Origin: Escherichia phage ECO340P2
Sequence record: OP172792
Direction: 5' to 3' (one strand)
DNA length: 64,000 nucleotides
Shown: one piece after another, positions 8,340-57,444 of the stretch
How the letters are laid out: each line of letters opens with the position of its first letter
Position numbering within the stretch: position 1 is the first letter of the stretch
The notes under the pieces: generated by a model
What the model saw: only the letters and a program-made list of their open reading frames with translations
What the model was told of the DNA's origin: nothing
Databases searched by the model: none
Position numbers and translations under genes: made by a program

Positions 8340-8469
8340 TAAATACTAATATTTAAATTCTTTTTAAAATAGCCAGTGTTCACACCACTAACTATGAGTT
8401 ATCGGTAAAGTGGTTACCGCCACTTGCCGAAGATTTACTCTGCTAAAGTAAGCTATATTAAAAAGAACT

Positions 8470-8555
8470 TGGCGGTAGATGTAGGACTCGAACCTACACG
8501 CCGTTTCCGACTACAGTTTAGCAAACTGTCGTGGCTACCATTTCACCAATCTACC
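8470..8555 (-). tRNA. tRNA-Ser (anticodon GCT), type II
   Basis: acceptor GGTAGAT/ATCTACC, G73, anticodon arm ACAGT-TTGCTAA-ACTGT, long variable arm, T-loop TTCGAGT. Confidence 0.85.
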
Positions 8556-8560
8556 TAATC

Positions 8561-8651
8561 TGGCGGAAGGAGGGAGAGTCGAACTCCCAAGGCTCTTTCA
8601 AGCTCGGCGGTTTTCAAGACCGTTTTCGTCGCCACGTCGATTTGCCCTTCC
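8561..8651 (-). tRNA. tRNA-Ser (anticodon TGA), type II
   Basis: acceptor GGAAGGG/TCCTTCC, G73, anticodon loop CTTGAAA, long variable arm, T-arm GGGAG/TTCGACT/CTCCC. Confidence 0.8.
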
Positions 8652-8660
8652 ATACTTATA

Positions 8661-8689
8661 ATCTAACATAAAATAATGTTAGTTGTCAA
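8661..8689 (-). promoter_or_regulatory. sigma70-like promoter (TTGACA-17-TTAGAT) upstream of the right tRNA sub-cluster
   Basis: reverse complement CTATTGACAA motif about 30 nt upstream of tRNA-Ser 5' end. Confidence 0.3.
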
Positions 8690-8884
8690 TAGTTTTTTAA
8701 AACATTTTACCATGAATGGTGACTCCACCAACCCCGTTCTCCACGAACGGTGCTCTTCGAGCATTTATGTCTTCTAATATAACCGTGGCCTTTGTTTATA
8801 ATGTCTGACATACTTGCCTCATTCTCTGCCACCATGATCAGTAGTGGGTTCAAATCACTTGAGCTAATTCATGTTAAAATGTTC

Positions 8885-8959
8885 TGGTGTCTTTACAAGG
8901 AATCGAACCTTGACTAAGAGTTTAGAAGACTCCTGTGCTATCCATTACACCATAAAGAC
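8885..8959 (-). tRNA. tRNA-Arg (anticodon TCT)
   Basis: acceptor GTCTTTA/TAAAGAC, anticodon arm GGAGT-CTTCTAA-ACTCT, T-arm CAAGG/TTCGATT/CCTTG, CCA. Confidence 0.85.
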
Positions 8960-8961
8960 GT

Positions 8962-9036
8962 TGGTGGCCCTGGCTGGTTTCGATCCAGCTACCTATCGGT
9001 TATGAGCCGACAGCTCTCCCATTGAGCTACAGGGCC
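8962..9036 (-). tRNA. tRNA-Met (anticodon CAT; second copy, possibly a different CAT isoacceptor)
   Basis: acceptor GGCCCTG/CAGGGCC, anticodon loop CTCATAA, T-arm GCTGG/ATCGAAA/CCAGC, CCA. Confidence 0.8.
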
Positions 9037-18438: not shown

Positions 18439-19317
18439 ATGTTTGTAAAATCTTTTAAATCCGCTCTGCCTATGGTTGTTGGTGACGATGCTTCTGTAGC
18501 ATCCCTTAACAGCATTACAGATATTCCTCTGGAATTTGTAACAGCAGAAGGCTCCCAGTCACACACTATCGGTCTTGTTCGTTTCGAAGATGACTCCAAA
18601 TTTGTAAAAGAGTTTTCAGATCTTGAACTGCTTAATGTAGGTCAATCTGTGAAGAAGGTAGATAAAAAGAAAGTTAAACGTATTCTGAATGAACGTCTAG
18701 AAGAAATGCGTCAGGATATGGAGAGCGAGGGTAAAGAGTTTTATGTCGATAAAGAAGTAGTCAAAGCAATGAAGGAAGATATTGAATTTGCACTATTGCC
18801 TGAAACAGAACCTGAAGATTTCTTTAACTATGTTGTCTTGGATAAAACTACGAATCTTCTTTATGTTCTTAATGGAAGTAAAAAGGTCGCAGAAGAGATT
18901 ACTTCTTTCCTCCGTTCCGTTCTGGGGACTTTCCCTTCGGTAGGTTTTAGTGTGCACGAAGAAGCTATTGTAAAAGGTTTTGGTGAATTGCTGGAGAATC
19001 ACGAAGCAGATCGTATTACTCTCGGAAATTATATCAAAATGGAGGATAGCGAGGGCGTTGTTGTTTGGAGTAAAGAATCCCTATACGAGTCTAAAGCTGT
19101 CGAACTAAAAGAAGATGGTAAAGATGTGGTTGCAATCGGTCTTGAATATGACGGTGTTGTAGATTTTGTAGTGGATAAAGAGTTTAAACTTTCTAAACTA
19201 CGTTTTCCGAAATATTTTGCAGACGAAGAAGGCAGTATTGAAGCTTCAGTCCTTCTGTGCTTCAATGAGATTCGAGGTCTGATGGAAGATTTAACCAAAG
19301 CAACAATCCTTAAATAA
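18439..19317 (+). CDS. hypothetical protein
   Basis: 292 aa ORF, strong RBS AGGAGG. Confidence 0.55.
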   Translation: MFVKSFKSALPMVVGDDASVASLNSITDIPLEFVTAEGSQSHTIGLVRFEDDSKFVKEFSDLELLNVGQSVKKVDKKKVKRILNERLEEMRQDMESEGKEFYVDKEVVKAMKEDIEFALLPETEPEDFFNYVVLDKTTNLLYVLNGSKKVAEEITSFLRSVLGTFPSVGFSVHEEAIVKGFGELLENHEADRITLGNYIKMEDSEGVVVWSKESLYESKAVELKEDGKDVVAIGLEYDGVVDFVVDKEFKLSKLRFPKYFADEEGSIEASVLLCFNEIRGLMEDLTKATILK

Positions 19318-19321
19318 GTTC

Positions 19322-19350
19322 TTGACTTGCGGGATTAGTTATGATATTAT
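19322..19350 (+). promoter_or_regulatory. sigma70-like promoter (TTGACT-17-TATTAT)
   Basis: good consensus match; followed by hairpin CCTACCT..AGGTAGG + TTTTTA. Confidence 0.45.
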
Positions 19351-19389
19351 GCCTACCTACTTAATGAGGTAGGCTTTTTAGGAGGCGTT

Positions 19390-19599
19390 ATGAAAAAGAT
19401 TCTGACAGTCGTTCTTTTAGCTTTTAGTTTCACAGTAGCAGCAGGTCAAATTACTTTAATCTTGTCTGATTCTGAAGTTAATGGCAACACAAAATATTGC
19501 TACTATTCTAACGCTAACCAAGATGAAGTTATAGCAATCCCGAAAAGTCGTCAATGTCCGTATACTAAAACATTCTCAACAGAGGATGACGATGAATAA
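19390..19599 (+). CDS. small secreted protein (signal peptide)
   Basis: 69 aa; N-terminal MKKILTVVLLAFSFTVAAG; RBS GGAGG. Confidence 0.55.
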   Translation: MKKILTVVLLAFSFTVAAGQITLILSDSEVNGNTKYCYYSNANQDEVIAIPKSRQCPYTKTFSTEDDDE

Positions 19600-20040
19600 T
19601 TAGGGGGAAATATTAGCGGTTATATTTTAATTAAACCTGAAGATCTTCATTTATATGTCAACGAAGAAACAATAGCTGCAATTGATTATGATCAAATCGC
19701 TTTCCAAGCAGCGTCTGCATTAGAGAAAAGAACAATCATTGCGAAGCACATCCCTTCAGGTGCTCAAAAGGAATTTAAAAATAAGACAGAGTTTTGGGGT
19801 AAAAGCAAGACTAAAATTGGAGGTTGGCTAGGAGATACAAATGCAGAAAGAGCCTCCAAAAACAAACGTCCCTTCACAAAGGAAGAGTTCGAAATCATTG
19901 ATAAGCAATACCCGCCAGAAGATATCGGACACACCTTCCAAGCAGCTAAAACAAAAGTCTTAGGTATTCTAAAACATCTACGTTTAGAAAAATATTGCGG
20001 AGTTATTGGCGTAGGAAAAACTTTCAGACACGCCTTCAAA

Positions 20041-20730
20041 ATGCCTGTAGAATATAAGTCTGAACGATTAGATATCAAACCACTTCAGCTTTCAGAAACC
20101 AAAGATTATCTTGTGGAGTTCCACAATGGTGATGTTGTTACTGTAATAGAGGCTGATGATGAGTTAGAGAAGTATGGTTTCCAAGGTTATAAAGATTATA
20201 AAAGGACGGGTAAATTTTCTTATATCGTAGTGTCTATAGATAAAGATAGTTTACATACTCCTAGTATCCTTTTTAATTTCTACAAAGAGGATGGAGTATT
20301 TAAAAATCCAGATATAATTCTTATTGACGAGTCTATTGGCGATATATGGATCGTAGATAAAGGTAAAAAGAAAGAAGTTAAAGGTTGGGGCAGTTACTGG
20401 TTAGCATATCAGATGCTAATGGGAGATAAAACAGATAGTATCCGACCTTATCAAGATTTTGATATTAAGTTCGGAGATATTACTTGTTTTAATCTTCTTT
20501 CAGCTTGTAAAACTCAAGCAGAACTTTTCCAAACAGTTAAAGATACTTACTACTCATGGTTCCCAGATGGTGTTAATTTTACTTCTTGGGATGGAGAAGA
20601 AGTCCATATGACAACAGATGAATGGATAGAAACAATTTTCCAGTTGGTATACATGAAACGCTGGGATAATGACGATACAACATTTGAGAGTATGCTTCAG
20701 TCATACATCTCGCAACAGGAGGCAGAGTGA
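20041..20730 (+). CDS. hypothetical protein (frame stays open upstream to 19600; true start may be non-canonical)
   Basis: 229 aa from first ATG; 147 in-frame upstream codons have no stop and no ATG/GTG/TTG. Confidence 0.5.
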   Translation: MPVEYKSERLDIKPLQLSETKDYLVEFHNGDVVTVIEADDELEKYGFQGYKDYKRTGKFSYIVVSIDKDSLHTPSILFNFYKEDGVFKNPDIILIDESIGDIWIVDKGKKKEVKGWGSYWLAYQMLMGDKTDSIRPYQDFDIKFGDITCFNLLSACKTQAELFQTVKDTYYSWFPDGVNFTSWDGEEVHMTTDEWIETIFQLVYMKRWDNDDTTFESMLQSYISQQEAE

Positions 20731-21686
20731 GCAGATTAACAGAAGAGCAGAAAGCAGATATCCTTAGTATGAGTGCAGAGGGTATGTCTTCTCGCAATAT
20801 TGCAGCAATTGTTTTAGGTAGTCCAACAAGAAAAAGCACAGTAAATGATTTCCTTGCACGTTTCGGTGCAAGTAAACAAGAGCCAGTTAAAAAGAAACAA
20901 CCAGTTATTAAAATTATTGATGTTGAAACTGCACCAGAGATTGCATATACTTTCCGTCGATTCAAAGCCTTCATTTCTCCAGACCAGGTAATTCGTAGGG
21001 GTTATTTGTTATCTTACTCTTCTGCTGATTTGTATACAGGTGAAGTAGAAGGTAAGAACTTATCTTCTTATCCTCTTTTCGATATCGATCATACAGATGA
21101 TTGGGAACTTTGCCAAGATCTTTGGAATCTTCTGAATGAAGCTGATGTTGTTGTGGCTCACAACGGATATAAGTTTGACCGTGCATACATTAACCAACGA
21201 TTTGCATATCACGATATGGCTCCTCCTTCTAATTATGTAGTTGTTGATACATTGAAGGCAGCTAAGAAGCAATTTGCACTTCCTTCCAACTCCCTTAAAG
21301 AAATGGGAGCATATTTCGAAACAGAAAGTGAAAAACTGGATAACGAGGGGTTCCCTTTATGGAAAGCATGTTGTGAAGGTGATCGTGATGCTTTTGAACG
21401 TATGCAGATTTACAATGATGGTGATGTTGTTTCACTCCGTGATTTGTATATGAAAATCCTTCCGTGGATTCCACAGCATCCTAACTTATCCGCTTATTAC
21501 CCAGATGAGAAGGTCCGTTGTTCTCGTTGTGGCAGTGATCACGTTCACGTTGTTACTGGTAAACAATACCACACTGCGGTAAGTTCTTTCGATATCATTC
21601 GTTGTGAATCTTGCGGAGGTTTGTCACGTAGTAGAGCAAACACCAGATCCAAGGATAAACGAGCAGCAACTATTATTGGAATCTAA
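20727..21686 (+). CDS. DEDD-type 3'-5' exonuclease-like protein with N-terminal HTH and C-terminal zinc ribbon
   Basis: IDVETA (Exo I-like), HNGYKFD (Exo II-like), sigma-like HTH at N-terminus, CSRCGS...CESCGG. Confidence 0.5.
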   Translation: MSRLTEEQKADILSMSAEGMSSRNIAAIVLGSPTRKSTVNDFLARFGASKQEPVKKKQPVIKIIDVETAPEIAYTFRRFKAFISPDQVIRRGYLLSYSSADLYTGEVEGKNLSSYPLFDIDHTDDWELCQDLWNLLNEADVVVAHNGYKFDRAYINQRFAYHDMAPPSNYVVVDTLKAAKKQFALPSNSLKEMGAYFETESEKLDNEGFPLWKACCEGDRDAFERMQIYNDGDVVSLRDLYMKILPWIPQHPNLSAYYPDEKVRCSRCGSDHVHVVTGKQYHTAVSSFDIIRCESCGGLSRSRANTRSKDKRAATIIGI

Positions 21687-56512: not shown

Positions 56513-56734
56513 CTACTCCGAAAGAACATTCACTTCATCAGAGAAAAATACGTAATCACAACCTTCCCAAACATCTTCTTCAAACCACTCCCATCCCTCA
56601 ACTTTGGACATTTCTTCTATCGTAACAAAGAATGTTGTCATATCATCGCTAACAAGATGTGCTTCAACAACAAAAGGAATCTGAACATTCTCAAAACCAA
56701 CATAACCCAATACATCGCAAACTCTAATTTTCAT
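56513..56734 (-). CDS. small acidic protein, EWF..DYVFF pair member
   Basis: VEGWEWFEEDVWEGCDYVFFSDE resembles the 62019-62249 product. Confidence 0.5.
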   Translation of the reverse strand: MKIRVCDVLGYVGFENVQIPFVVEAHLVSDDMTTFFVTIEEMSKVEGWEWFEEDVWEGCDYVFFSDEVNVLSE

Positions 56735-56735
56735 A

Positions 56736-56936
56736 TTATGCTCCTTTGTAGATTATGTTGGTGCGTTCACACTCTGCCACCAGCAAGCGATTAGCAATGT
56801 TGTCCATAGGAACATCAATCTCTACGCTCCAGGCATTGATATACACTTCTTCAATCTTTGCTCCAAGCGTTTGTGCGATCAGAGCAACAGCCCCAGCATA
56901 TTCAAGTTTAATCTCAATTACCATTTTGCACCTCAA
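56736..56936 (-). CDS. hypothetical protein
   Basis: 66 aa ORF. Confidence 0.5.
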   Translation of the reverse strand: MRCKMVIEIKLEYAGAVALIAQTLGAKIEEVYINAWSVEIDVPMDNIANRLLVAECERTNIIYKGA

Positions 56937-56938
56937 GG

Positions 56939-57139
56939 TTATTTATCTTGCTTGTATCTTACAAGGCGATCACACTCTAGGTCAAGAAATTTCTCCGCAT
57001 TTCGTTCATGTTTGAGCACAATACATTGTTCTTTCCAGTCTGTAGCTCTTTGCTGCGCTGCTCCTGGGTCAAAATCCCAAAGCCATGCCGCGAAAAGAAC
57101 AACCATAACAATTATCAAGAAACTAAACACTATTGGCAT
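56939..57139 (-). CDS. hypothetical small membrane protein
   Basis: ATG after AGGAGGA; hydrophobic helix IVFSFLIIVMVVLFAAWLW. Confidence 0.45.
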   Translation of the reverse strand: MPIVFSFLIIVMVVLFAAWLWDFDPGAAQQRATDWKEQCIVLKHERNAEKFLDLECDRLVRYKQDK

Positions 57140-57444
57140 TGCACATCCTCCTGTGTAGCATGATCTTTTACCCATTTTATACGGGCAGCATTCAAATGCA
57201 ATAGCCCGTTTCTTTGTGCAAAATCATATTTAAACCAGTCTCCGTCATCAAACGGGTATTCTTCAGACAACCCTGCTTCTCGAAATTGCATTTGCATTTC
57301 ATAATTTAGATCATCGTAACCACCAGTCCAAAGGTAGAGGCAACTACATAATCCTTTATCATGCCAGAAAGGATTATTATCTGGAGCACCAGTTAATAGC
57401 CAGTTATGATATGCCTGATAAAATTCTTTAAGTTCTTCTGACAT
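57130..57444 (-). CDS. paralog family A member
   Basis: FYQAYHNWL, GAPDNNPF, GLCSCL, YPF, RIKWVKDH. Confidence 0.55.
   Translation of the reverse strand: MSEELKEFYQAYHNWLLTGAPDNNPFWHDKGLCSCLYLWTGGYDDLNYEMQMQFREAGLSEEYPFDDGDWFKYDFAQRNGLLHLNAARIKWVKDHATQEDVQCQ

Follow-up and report, generated by a model that had tools for sequence, protein, structure and literature searches.

Two genes of Escherichia coli, infC and pcnB, both opening with AUU, are the only ones confirmed to use non-canonical start codons according to Hecht et al. (bioRxiv 10.1101/063800), whose work places the four near-cognate codons AUU, AUC, AUA and CUG at 1–2% of AUG in this host. Among bacteria at large, too, confirmed starts of this type are very rare. 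Translation from AUU lies several-fold to many-fold below that from AUG, and its level varies with context, initiation factor 3 (IF3), temperature and guanosine tetraphosphate (ppGpp) (PMC3592434, PMC5499595). Here we describe an exonuclease gene of Escherichia phage ECO340P2 (sequence record OP172792) that appears to rely on a codon of this kind; the DNA analyzed, referred to as the window, is a stretch of 64,000 nucleotides. Positions 19612–20730 of the window very probably constitute one gene for a 372-aa 5'-3' exonuclease of the flap endonuclease (FEN) family, starting at AUU 19612, a reading that is built on comparison with related sequences. The features on which it turns are listed below.

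19390–19599, plus strand: upstream small-protein gene, 69 aa, from the translation of its open reading frame (ORF), with its TAA stop at 19597–19599
19602–19608, plus strand: Shine–Dalgarno (SD) sequence AGGGGGA, with GGAGG or GGGGG at the same position in all clade members
19612–19614, plus strand: proposed ATT (AUU) start codon, aligned with the near-cognate codon of clade relatives
19612–20730, plus strand: proposed full-length exonuclease coding sequence, 372 codons and TGA (PHROG, tblastn, AlphaFold2, Foldseek)
19684–19692, plus strand: codons for Asp25-Tyr26-Asp27 (motif IDYDQ) in the first beta strand, from conservation and the structural model
20041–20043, plus strand: ATG for Met144, a predicted internal codon, annotated as the start of a 229-aa product in GenBank and RefSeq records of the phAPEC8 type

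An open stretch that encodes part of a nuclease

A first-pass annotation, made from the letters of the window, had noticed an open stretch between the TAA and ATG 20041, in the frame of the small-protein gene, and had judged it very unlikely to have arisen by chance. Both observations held. At 19600–20040, 147 codons contain no stop and no ATG, GTG or TTG, so that the first canonical start in the frame is ATG 20041, where the ORF listing begins. Under the trinucleotide frequencies of the window, the probability of meeting no stop in 147 codons is about 2e-4, and that of meeting neither a stop nor a canonical start is about 3e-8; under the in-frame codon usage of the window's long ORFs, 143 sense codons would lack ATG, GTG and TTG with a probability of about 4e-4. 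The window has 51 stop-to-stop ORFs that reach 150 codons, and the one holding this stretch is the outlier by a wide margin; the runner-up, which seems to lie antisense to a gene on the minus strand, has 55 open codons. The 64 kb were also scanned for an SD sequence followed by a near-cognate codon and an ORF that runs for 80 codons or more with no early canonical start, which returned a single match, the exonuclease gene. A second long open stretch, at 56706–57158 on the plus strand, was rejected, since it too seems to run antisense to a gene on the minus strand.

The first-pass annotation had also allowed that the TAA might be a sequencing error. Apart from the oddity of the arrangement itself, nothing speaks for a sequencing or assembly error in one genome, whether it created the TAA or removed an ATG. 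The explanation fails because the arrangement is shared by 64 phage records encoding the protein at 99% identity or more, three listed examples of which align from residue 1, and by every diverged lineage. At the DNA level, the region 19300–20800, junction included, is at least 99% identical to 51 records from phAPEC8-type phages (genus Phapecoctavirus, subfamily Stephanstirmvirinae, the window being assigned as phAPEC8-like). The same junction was recovered in IMG/VR and metagenome contigs. We regard the chance of such an error as close to nil.

Relatives of the protein encoded by the full-length frame include the exonucleases of T7-like, rV5-like and ICP1-like phages. PHROG 107 ('exonuclease') aligns to residues 10–367 with E = 1.4e-55, and residues 1–143 taken alone also match. 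A tblastn search matched 1232 phage records, 900 of which cover at least 80% of the query, and in relatives of 30–80% identity the alignments begin at residues 1–7. Because a Pfam search of the window protein gave no match at E <= 0.01, the family assignment was drawn from PHROGs, the fold search and homologues. Sequence and profile searches of the PDB returned nothing, or chance matches to arabinofuranosidase at E = 0.017.

AlphaFold2 modeling, run with an alignment of 29 homologues, produced a single compact domain with a predicted local distance difference test score (pLDDT) of 94.4 and a predicted template modeling score (pTM) of 0.87. In this model, residues 5–141 supply five strands and three helices, the strands of the N-terminal part spanning residues 21–25, 39–46, 52–55, 93–100 and 127–137. 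The top 11 PDB matches found by Foldseek are all FEN-type 5' nucleases (E. coli ExoIX, T5 D15, Mycobacterium smegmatis Pol1), with E = 4e-5 to 2.5e-3, a match probability of 0.98–1.0 and a TM-score of at most 0.61 on the target; ExoIX, T5 D15 and the 5' nuclease of Pol I lead the list with a probability of 1.0.

Conservation within the open stretch is pronounced at the protein level. In an alignment of 29 sequences (A1), 15 positions are invariant within residues 1–143, namely D25, H46, G50, F55, F61, G63, W72, L73, N77, F93, K113, G130, G133, F138 and R139, and five of these (D25, H46, F55, N77 and R139) keep this status at identities as low as 30%, a range over which D27 is conserved to at least 90%. 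The invariant acidic residues are D25, E180, D182, D183, D210, D212, D272 and D275, with D27 nearly so. From this pattern we infer that the D25 motif supplies the first of the carboxylates that would bind metal in the FEN active site. In comparisons with ten relatives, saturation has been reached at synonymous sites, with a proportion of synonymous differences (pS) of 0.67–0.99. The corresponding non-synonymous proportion (pN) is 0.16–0.36 for codons 2–143 and 0.07–0.36 for codons 144–372, codons 2–143 being comparable or at most a few-fold higher; for codons 2–24 it is 0.15–0.33 within closer lineages. The open stretch is coding and conserved, and it forms the N-terminal 143 residues of the nuclease fold.

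These results bear on the annotation that the public databases offer. In GenBank and RefSeq, phAPEC8-type genomes carry a 229-aa product from ATG 20041, which is the first canonical start in the frame; the stretch before it would then be a decaying remnant or non-coding. We consider this very unlikely. No SD sequence precedes ATG 20041, and Met144 is not conserved, with L, T or A in homologues and CTG in Citrobacter phage Tr1. The stretch is under strong purifying selection and stop-free in more than 30 diverged lineages, and, judged from the model, a 229-aa product would miss five strands of the core sheet together with the invariant D25.

All examined public records of Stephanstirmvirinae misannotate the exonuclease, giving it as the 229-aa fragment, with a lineage-specific downstream GTG or TTG start, or in split pieces. 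The called N-termini vary by lineage (MNEDT, MHKYV, MIKPEDL, MKHIA, MAFQA and MEKRS, from downstream GTG, TTG or ATG codons), and several of the called starts cut into or past the IDYDQ motif. Since the called starts differ between lineages, there is no conserved canonical start. In Tr1 (locus L006, OR515479.1), the exonuclease gene at 1255–2373 is annotated as two hypothetical proteins, 1331–1474 and 1612–2373, and reads instead as one gene from ATT 1255. Our finding corrects the annotation of the exonuclease in the examined public Stephanstirmvirinae records, and gene callers limited to ATG, GTG and TTG will repeat the misannotation.

The start codon in related phages

Between the TAA and ATT 19612, the window contains only TTA GGG GGA AAT. 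The GGGGG core of the SD sequence lies at 19603–19607 and is followed by the 4-nt spacer AAAT. The first-pass annotation had put the ATT 4 nt behind a GGGGGA run; this distance is correct when counted from GGGGG, and from GGGGGA it is only 3 nt.

Junctions were gathered from annotated phage records, from IMG/VR and metagenome contigs, and from contigs encoding database homologues. All lineages with 49% identity or more to the window protein, which together we call the clade, show GGAGG or GGGGG, 4–5 nt of spacer, a non-canonical codon and then a codon for Ser, Thr or Gly, with TTG replacing the non-canonical codon in one of 32 distinct sequences. The unit of this count is the distinct combination of protein and start codon. 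At the start position we found 13 ATT, 10 ATC, 6 ATA, 2 CTG and 1 TTG, that is, a near-cognate codon in 31 of 32 sequences and ATG in none (0/32). GGAGG or GGGGG stands 4–5 nt upstream in 32 of 32. Examples are given as the SD sequence with its spacer, followed by the start codon and the codons after it.

Window: GGGGGAAAT, then ATT AGC GGT TAT
phi92: TAGGAGGTAAT, then ATT AGC
phiWec179: GGGGGAATT, then ATC AGC
KP13-26: TAGGAGGGTAAT, then ATC GGC TAC
L073: TAGGAGGATAAG, then ATA GGC
L015: AAGGAGGTAGT, then ATA AGT
L016: AAGGAGGTTTA, then CTG AGT
L026: TAGGAGGTAAC, then CTG AGT
L027: GGAGGGTTT, then ATT TCT
L028: GGAGGTTTT, then ATT TCT

An ATT start at 19612 behind the G-run had been the first of the alternatives in the first-pass annotation, and the comparison of junctions supports it: translation most likely starts at this codon. 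We infer that AUU is used in vivo, which would give an N-terminal formylmethionine (fMet). On a neighbor-joining tree the ancestral state is ATT, and parsimony needs at least nine independent codon changes, at least eight of them among the four near-cognates and one to a canonical codon (TTG). Residue 2, when it is Ser, is encoded by AGC or AGT in some lineages and by TCT or TCA in others; this switch of codon class indicates translation of the codon that follows the proposed start, with selection acting there on the amino acid. Four distinct sequences (five loci: L014/L036, L069, L070 and L072) have an in-frame TAA that abuts the ATC, which leaves no room for an upstream start.

At the homologous position, 24 other distinct sequences of more distant relatives carry 11 ATG, 8 TTG and 5 GTG. 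The loci noted for relatives with canonical codons are L049–L051, L056, L057, L062, L065, L083, L093, L096–L101, L108 and L111, and the named sampled members of the distant set are Vequintavirinae. One of these, Salmonella phage SSBI34, reads GGGGGAGTCAGTA-ATG-GGT-TAT, and the I-(S)-G-Y of the window's clade aligns with the M-G-Y of the distant relatives. The first-pass annotation had named homologues that start at ATG behind an unrelated, stop-containing region as evidence that would speak against its observation; the ATG-starting homologues found here place their ATG opposite ATT 19612 and not opposite ATG 20041. The share of GTG and TTG among the distinct canonical-start relatives (13 of 24) seems high, which suggests a family-wide tendency to weak initiation.

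The same junctions speak to another possibility raised by the first-pass annotation, readthrough of the TAA at 19597, and to a frameshift as well; either would join the small secreted protein to the exonuclease. The two ORFs do share a frame, with a single stop between them, in the window and in KP13-26-type phages, and a database protein of 444 aa, P0005 (L022 1501–2835, Logan contig SRR30397360_28145), resembles such a fusion. The DNA of that contig, however, has a TAG at the junction and encodes no such protein under translation table 11; P0005 is a gene-calling artefact, its TAG presumably having been read as Gln by a caller that applied a TAG=Gln code. The frame relation between upstream ORF and exonuclease is not conserved, being 0 in the window and non-zero in phi92, Tr1 and phiWec179, and the ORFs do not overlap as a frameshift between them would demand. 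Double stops occur in several lineages (TAA TAG in L015 and L016, TAG...TAA in L014, L069, L070 and L072), and the upstream gene itself differs between lineages: L023 has a methyltransferase gene there and L026 an HNH endonuclease gene. A signal peptide fused to a DNA nuclease would moreover make no biological sense. Readthrough or frameshifting is thus contradicted by the comparison of lineages and extremely unlikely, and separate initiation at the near-cognate codon is retained as the preferred reading.

Two Logan contigs carrying protein P0035, L026 and L027, offer a view of change at this junction. From the IDYDQ motif onward their exonucleases are identical; the first 23 codons diverge, and the contigs also have different start codons (CTG in L026, ATT in L027) and different upstream genes. 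L026 carries an inserted HNH endonuclease gene, whose TAA stands just 1 nt before the CTG. The contrast points to recent recombination or insertion of a homing endonuclease at the junction. In the literature, our search found no report of a near-cognate start in the exonuclease gene of phAPEC8-, phi92- or rV5-like phages.

Initiation mechanism and genomic context

In the mechanism that we propose, the strong SD sequence 4 nt upstream would position AUU 19612 in the ribosomal P site, where the host fMet-tRNA would decode it with a mismatch at the third position. Initiation of this kind would run at about 1–2% of AUG, being discriminated against by IF3, and the output of the nuclease would be kept low, possibly in an IF3-sensitive manner, because near-cognate codons initiate weakly. 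Over-production of phage 5' nucleases, T5 D15 among them, is toxic to E. coli, and the weak start probably serves to attenuate a potentially toxic nuclease. The four near-cognate codons found in the clade are exactly the set of Hecht et al. (bioRxiv 10.1101/063800). Between lineages, synonymous sites are saturated and the start codon has repeatedly exchanged its third base, yet ATG is never found among the 32 clade sequences, a pattern that suggests selection on the weak start as such. The use of GTG or TTG by 13 of the 24 distinct distant sequences points in this direction too.

A further question is which ribosomes use the codon. Initiation there might depend chiefly on ribosomes that have finished translating the preceding ORF and less on de novo entry; such termination–reinitiation, or translational coupling, would tie exonuclease output to translation of the upstream gene. 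The upstream ORF stops near the start codon in every lineage checked (distances of 1, 8 and 12 nt were measured, reaching up to about 18 nt), and its stop often overlaps the SD sequence, as in TAGGAGG. In reporters, reinitiation and de novo initiation contribute about equally at such junctions, including an infC-like UAA GGU AUU (PMC3592434). On the other hand, this proximity of stop and start is not specific to the exonuclease gene, because genes are packed tightly in phage genomes in general; the strong SD sequence argues for de novo binding of the 30S subunit as well, and IF3 also reduces reinitiation (PMC2268962). Predominant use by terminating ribosomes is a tentative proposition, less likely than not, and coupling to termination of the preceding ORF may contribute to initiation at AUU 19612.

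Several points weigh against a full-length exonuclease that starts at this codon and is attenuated by it. The window protein has no Pfam match, and its relatives match PF02739 (5'-3' exonuclease N-terminal domain) at 24–28 bits, under the gathering cut-off of 34.3 bits. From the window alone, in-frame ATT codons at 19624 and 19630 are also conceivable starts, lying 16–22 nt from the SD sequence, and the 4-nt spacing between GGGGG and ATT 19612 is at the short end of the usual range. Three lineages, L023–L025, carry an ATG nine codons past the near-cognate codon, a possible alternative start, and the clade member L083 has TTG. The attenuation rationale itself, like the expected sensitivity to IF3, is drawn from the known behavior of near-cognate codons in E. 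coli reporters. Apart from these points, RNA folding around the start in four lineages revealed no significant or conserved structure (z = -0.3 to -1.4) and no sign of a structural switch or of a hairpin sequestering the SD sequence, and an Rfam scan of 19000–21000 gave only sub-threshold chance matches.

A more elaborate scenario would make the near-cognate start a regulated switch under clade-wide selection, tied to the state of initiation (IF3 availability, ppGpp, temperature) and possibly also to an initiator-like phage tRNA(CAU) encoded at 7114–7192; we rate it as improbable. If it were true, a phage-supplied initiator tRNA would relax the choice of start codon for selected phage genes. 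The link of this tRNA to near-cognate initiation is speculation.

The tRNA itself is one of two with a CAT anticodon in a cluster at 7114–9036 and lies on the minus strand. It has an A1/C72 mismatch, G2:C71, C3:G70 and A11:T24, and its T-arm is one that we take to resemble that of E. coli tRNA-fMet. Three consecutive G-C pairs in the anticodon stem are inspected by IF3 and the P site; the phage tRNA lacks this run and has only G30:C40. In one relative RefSeq labels it 'tRNA-OTHER'. Its conservation is 94% or more in Phapecoctavirus and Justusliebigvirus, and the Escherichia records matching it number 106, as do the Escherichia records of Stephanstirmvirinae; because the two counts agree, rV5-like phages seem to have no close copy. 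A pattern scan of IMG/VR for this tRNA gave many unrelated phages among the matches listed and has no bearing on an association with the clade. The phage tRNA-Ile(GAU), considered as a special initiator for AUU and AUC, was rejected, having an ordinary T1:A72 pair and no initiator features.

The exonuclease gene is housed in a replication/recombination module, with RdgC-like and DnaQ-like genes adjoining. The gene order is nucleotide pyrophosphohydrolase, RdgC-like protein, small signal-peptide protein, 'putative exonuclease' and DnaQ-like exonuclease. Over the region 19300–20800, phi92-like phages (Justusliebigvirus) and related phages of Klebsiella, Citrobacter and Serratia show 72–76% identity to the window. 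The small upstream protein matches PHROG 4641 (function unknown) with E = 7e-27, and its N-terminus, MKKILTVVLLAFSFTVAAGQ, is signal-peptide-like; for the phi92 orthologue, the annotation in the phi92 record gives a SignalP probability of 1.0. One further candidate feature precedes this gene.

19322–19374, plus strand: candidate sigma-70-like promoter TTGACT-17-TATTAT, followed by a GC-rich hairpin and T-run (consensus scan only)

The candidate promoter also has a TG extension, and the adjacent hairpin and T-run score as an intrinsic terminator. The order, promoter then terminator, is odd, and both lie directly before the SD sequence of the small gene at 19390. The element may serve in transcription of both the small gene and the exonuclease gene. 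Downstream, the start of the DnaQ-like gene (20727–21686 of the window) is annotated inconsistently: GenBank phAPEC8 places it at GTG 20727 (319 aa), which overlaps the exonuclease TGA as GTGA, and RefSeq at an ATG 42 nt further downstream (305 aa).

Comparison with known systems

The closest analogue is E. coli pcnB, which encodes poly(A) polymerase I, a nucleic-acid enzyme that is harmful in excess and is limited by an inefficient AUU start (bioRxiv 10.1101/063800, PMC3592434). In contrast to the phage gene, pcnB is chromosomal, and in other bacteria its start alternates with AUG, GUG and UUG according to Hecht et al.; in the phage clade, at least eight changes stay among the four near-cognates and one leads to the canonical TTG. 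E. coli infC, the gene for IF3, resembles the phage gene in that its AUU start lies shortly after the stop of the preceding cistron and its expression is IF3-sensitive (PMC3592434, PMC5499595). It differs in that its AUU forms an autoregulatory loop with its own product, whereas any IF3 dependence of the phage exonuclease would be passive, because no link of this enzyme to IF3 is known.

A parallel in misannotation is provided by ebpA of Enterococcus faecalis, which was annotated from an ATG 120 bp downstream and whose true, rare ATT start attenuates expression (PMC4447247). The gene encodes a pilus tip protein of a Gram-positive bacterium and its start was shown experimentally; the phage case is comparative only.

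As for the enzyme, the window exonuclease shares with the FEN family (T5 D15, E. coli ExoIX, the 5' nuclease of Pol I and T7-like exonucleases) the fold and the acidic motifs IDYD, IEADD, DKD and GDxTDxI. It differs from solved FEN structures in having only 11–13% sequence identity to them, and from the family in carrying some 50 inserted residues behind the first strand. To our knowledge, no non-canonical start has been described in model FEN enzymes. Orthologues in Vequintavirinae and other distant phages (SSBI34 and rV5-like contigs were sampled) have 37–47% identity and the same N-terminus, M-G-Y-P as against I-(S)-G-Y, and differ in using ATG, GTG or TTG at the homologous codon.

As judged from these comparisons, the phage exonuclease gene adds a new case, spread over a whole clade, to the rare but known mechanism of infC and pcnB. 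On evolutionary grounds, the pattern across the clade argues that selection can act on the weakness of a start codon as such.

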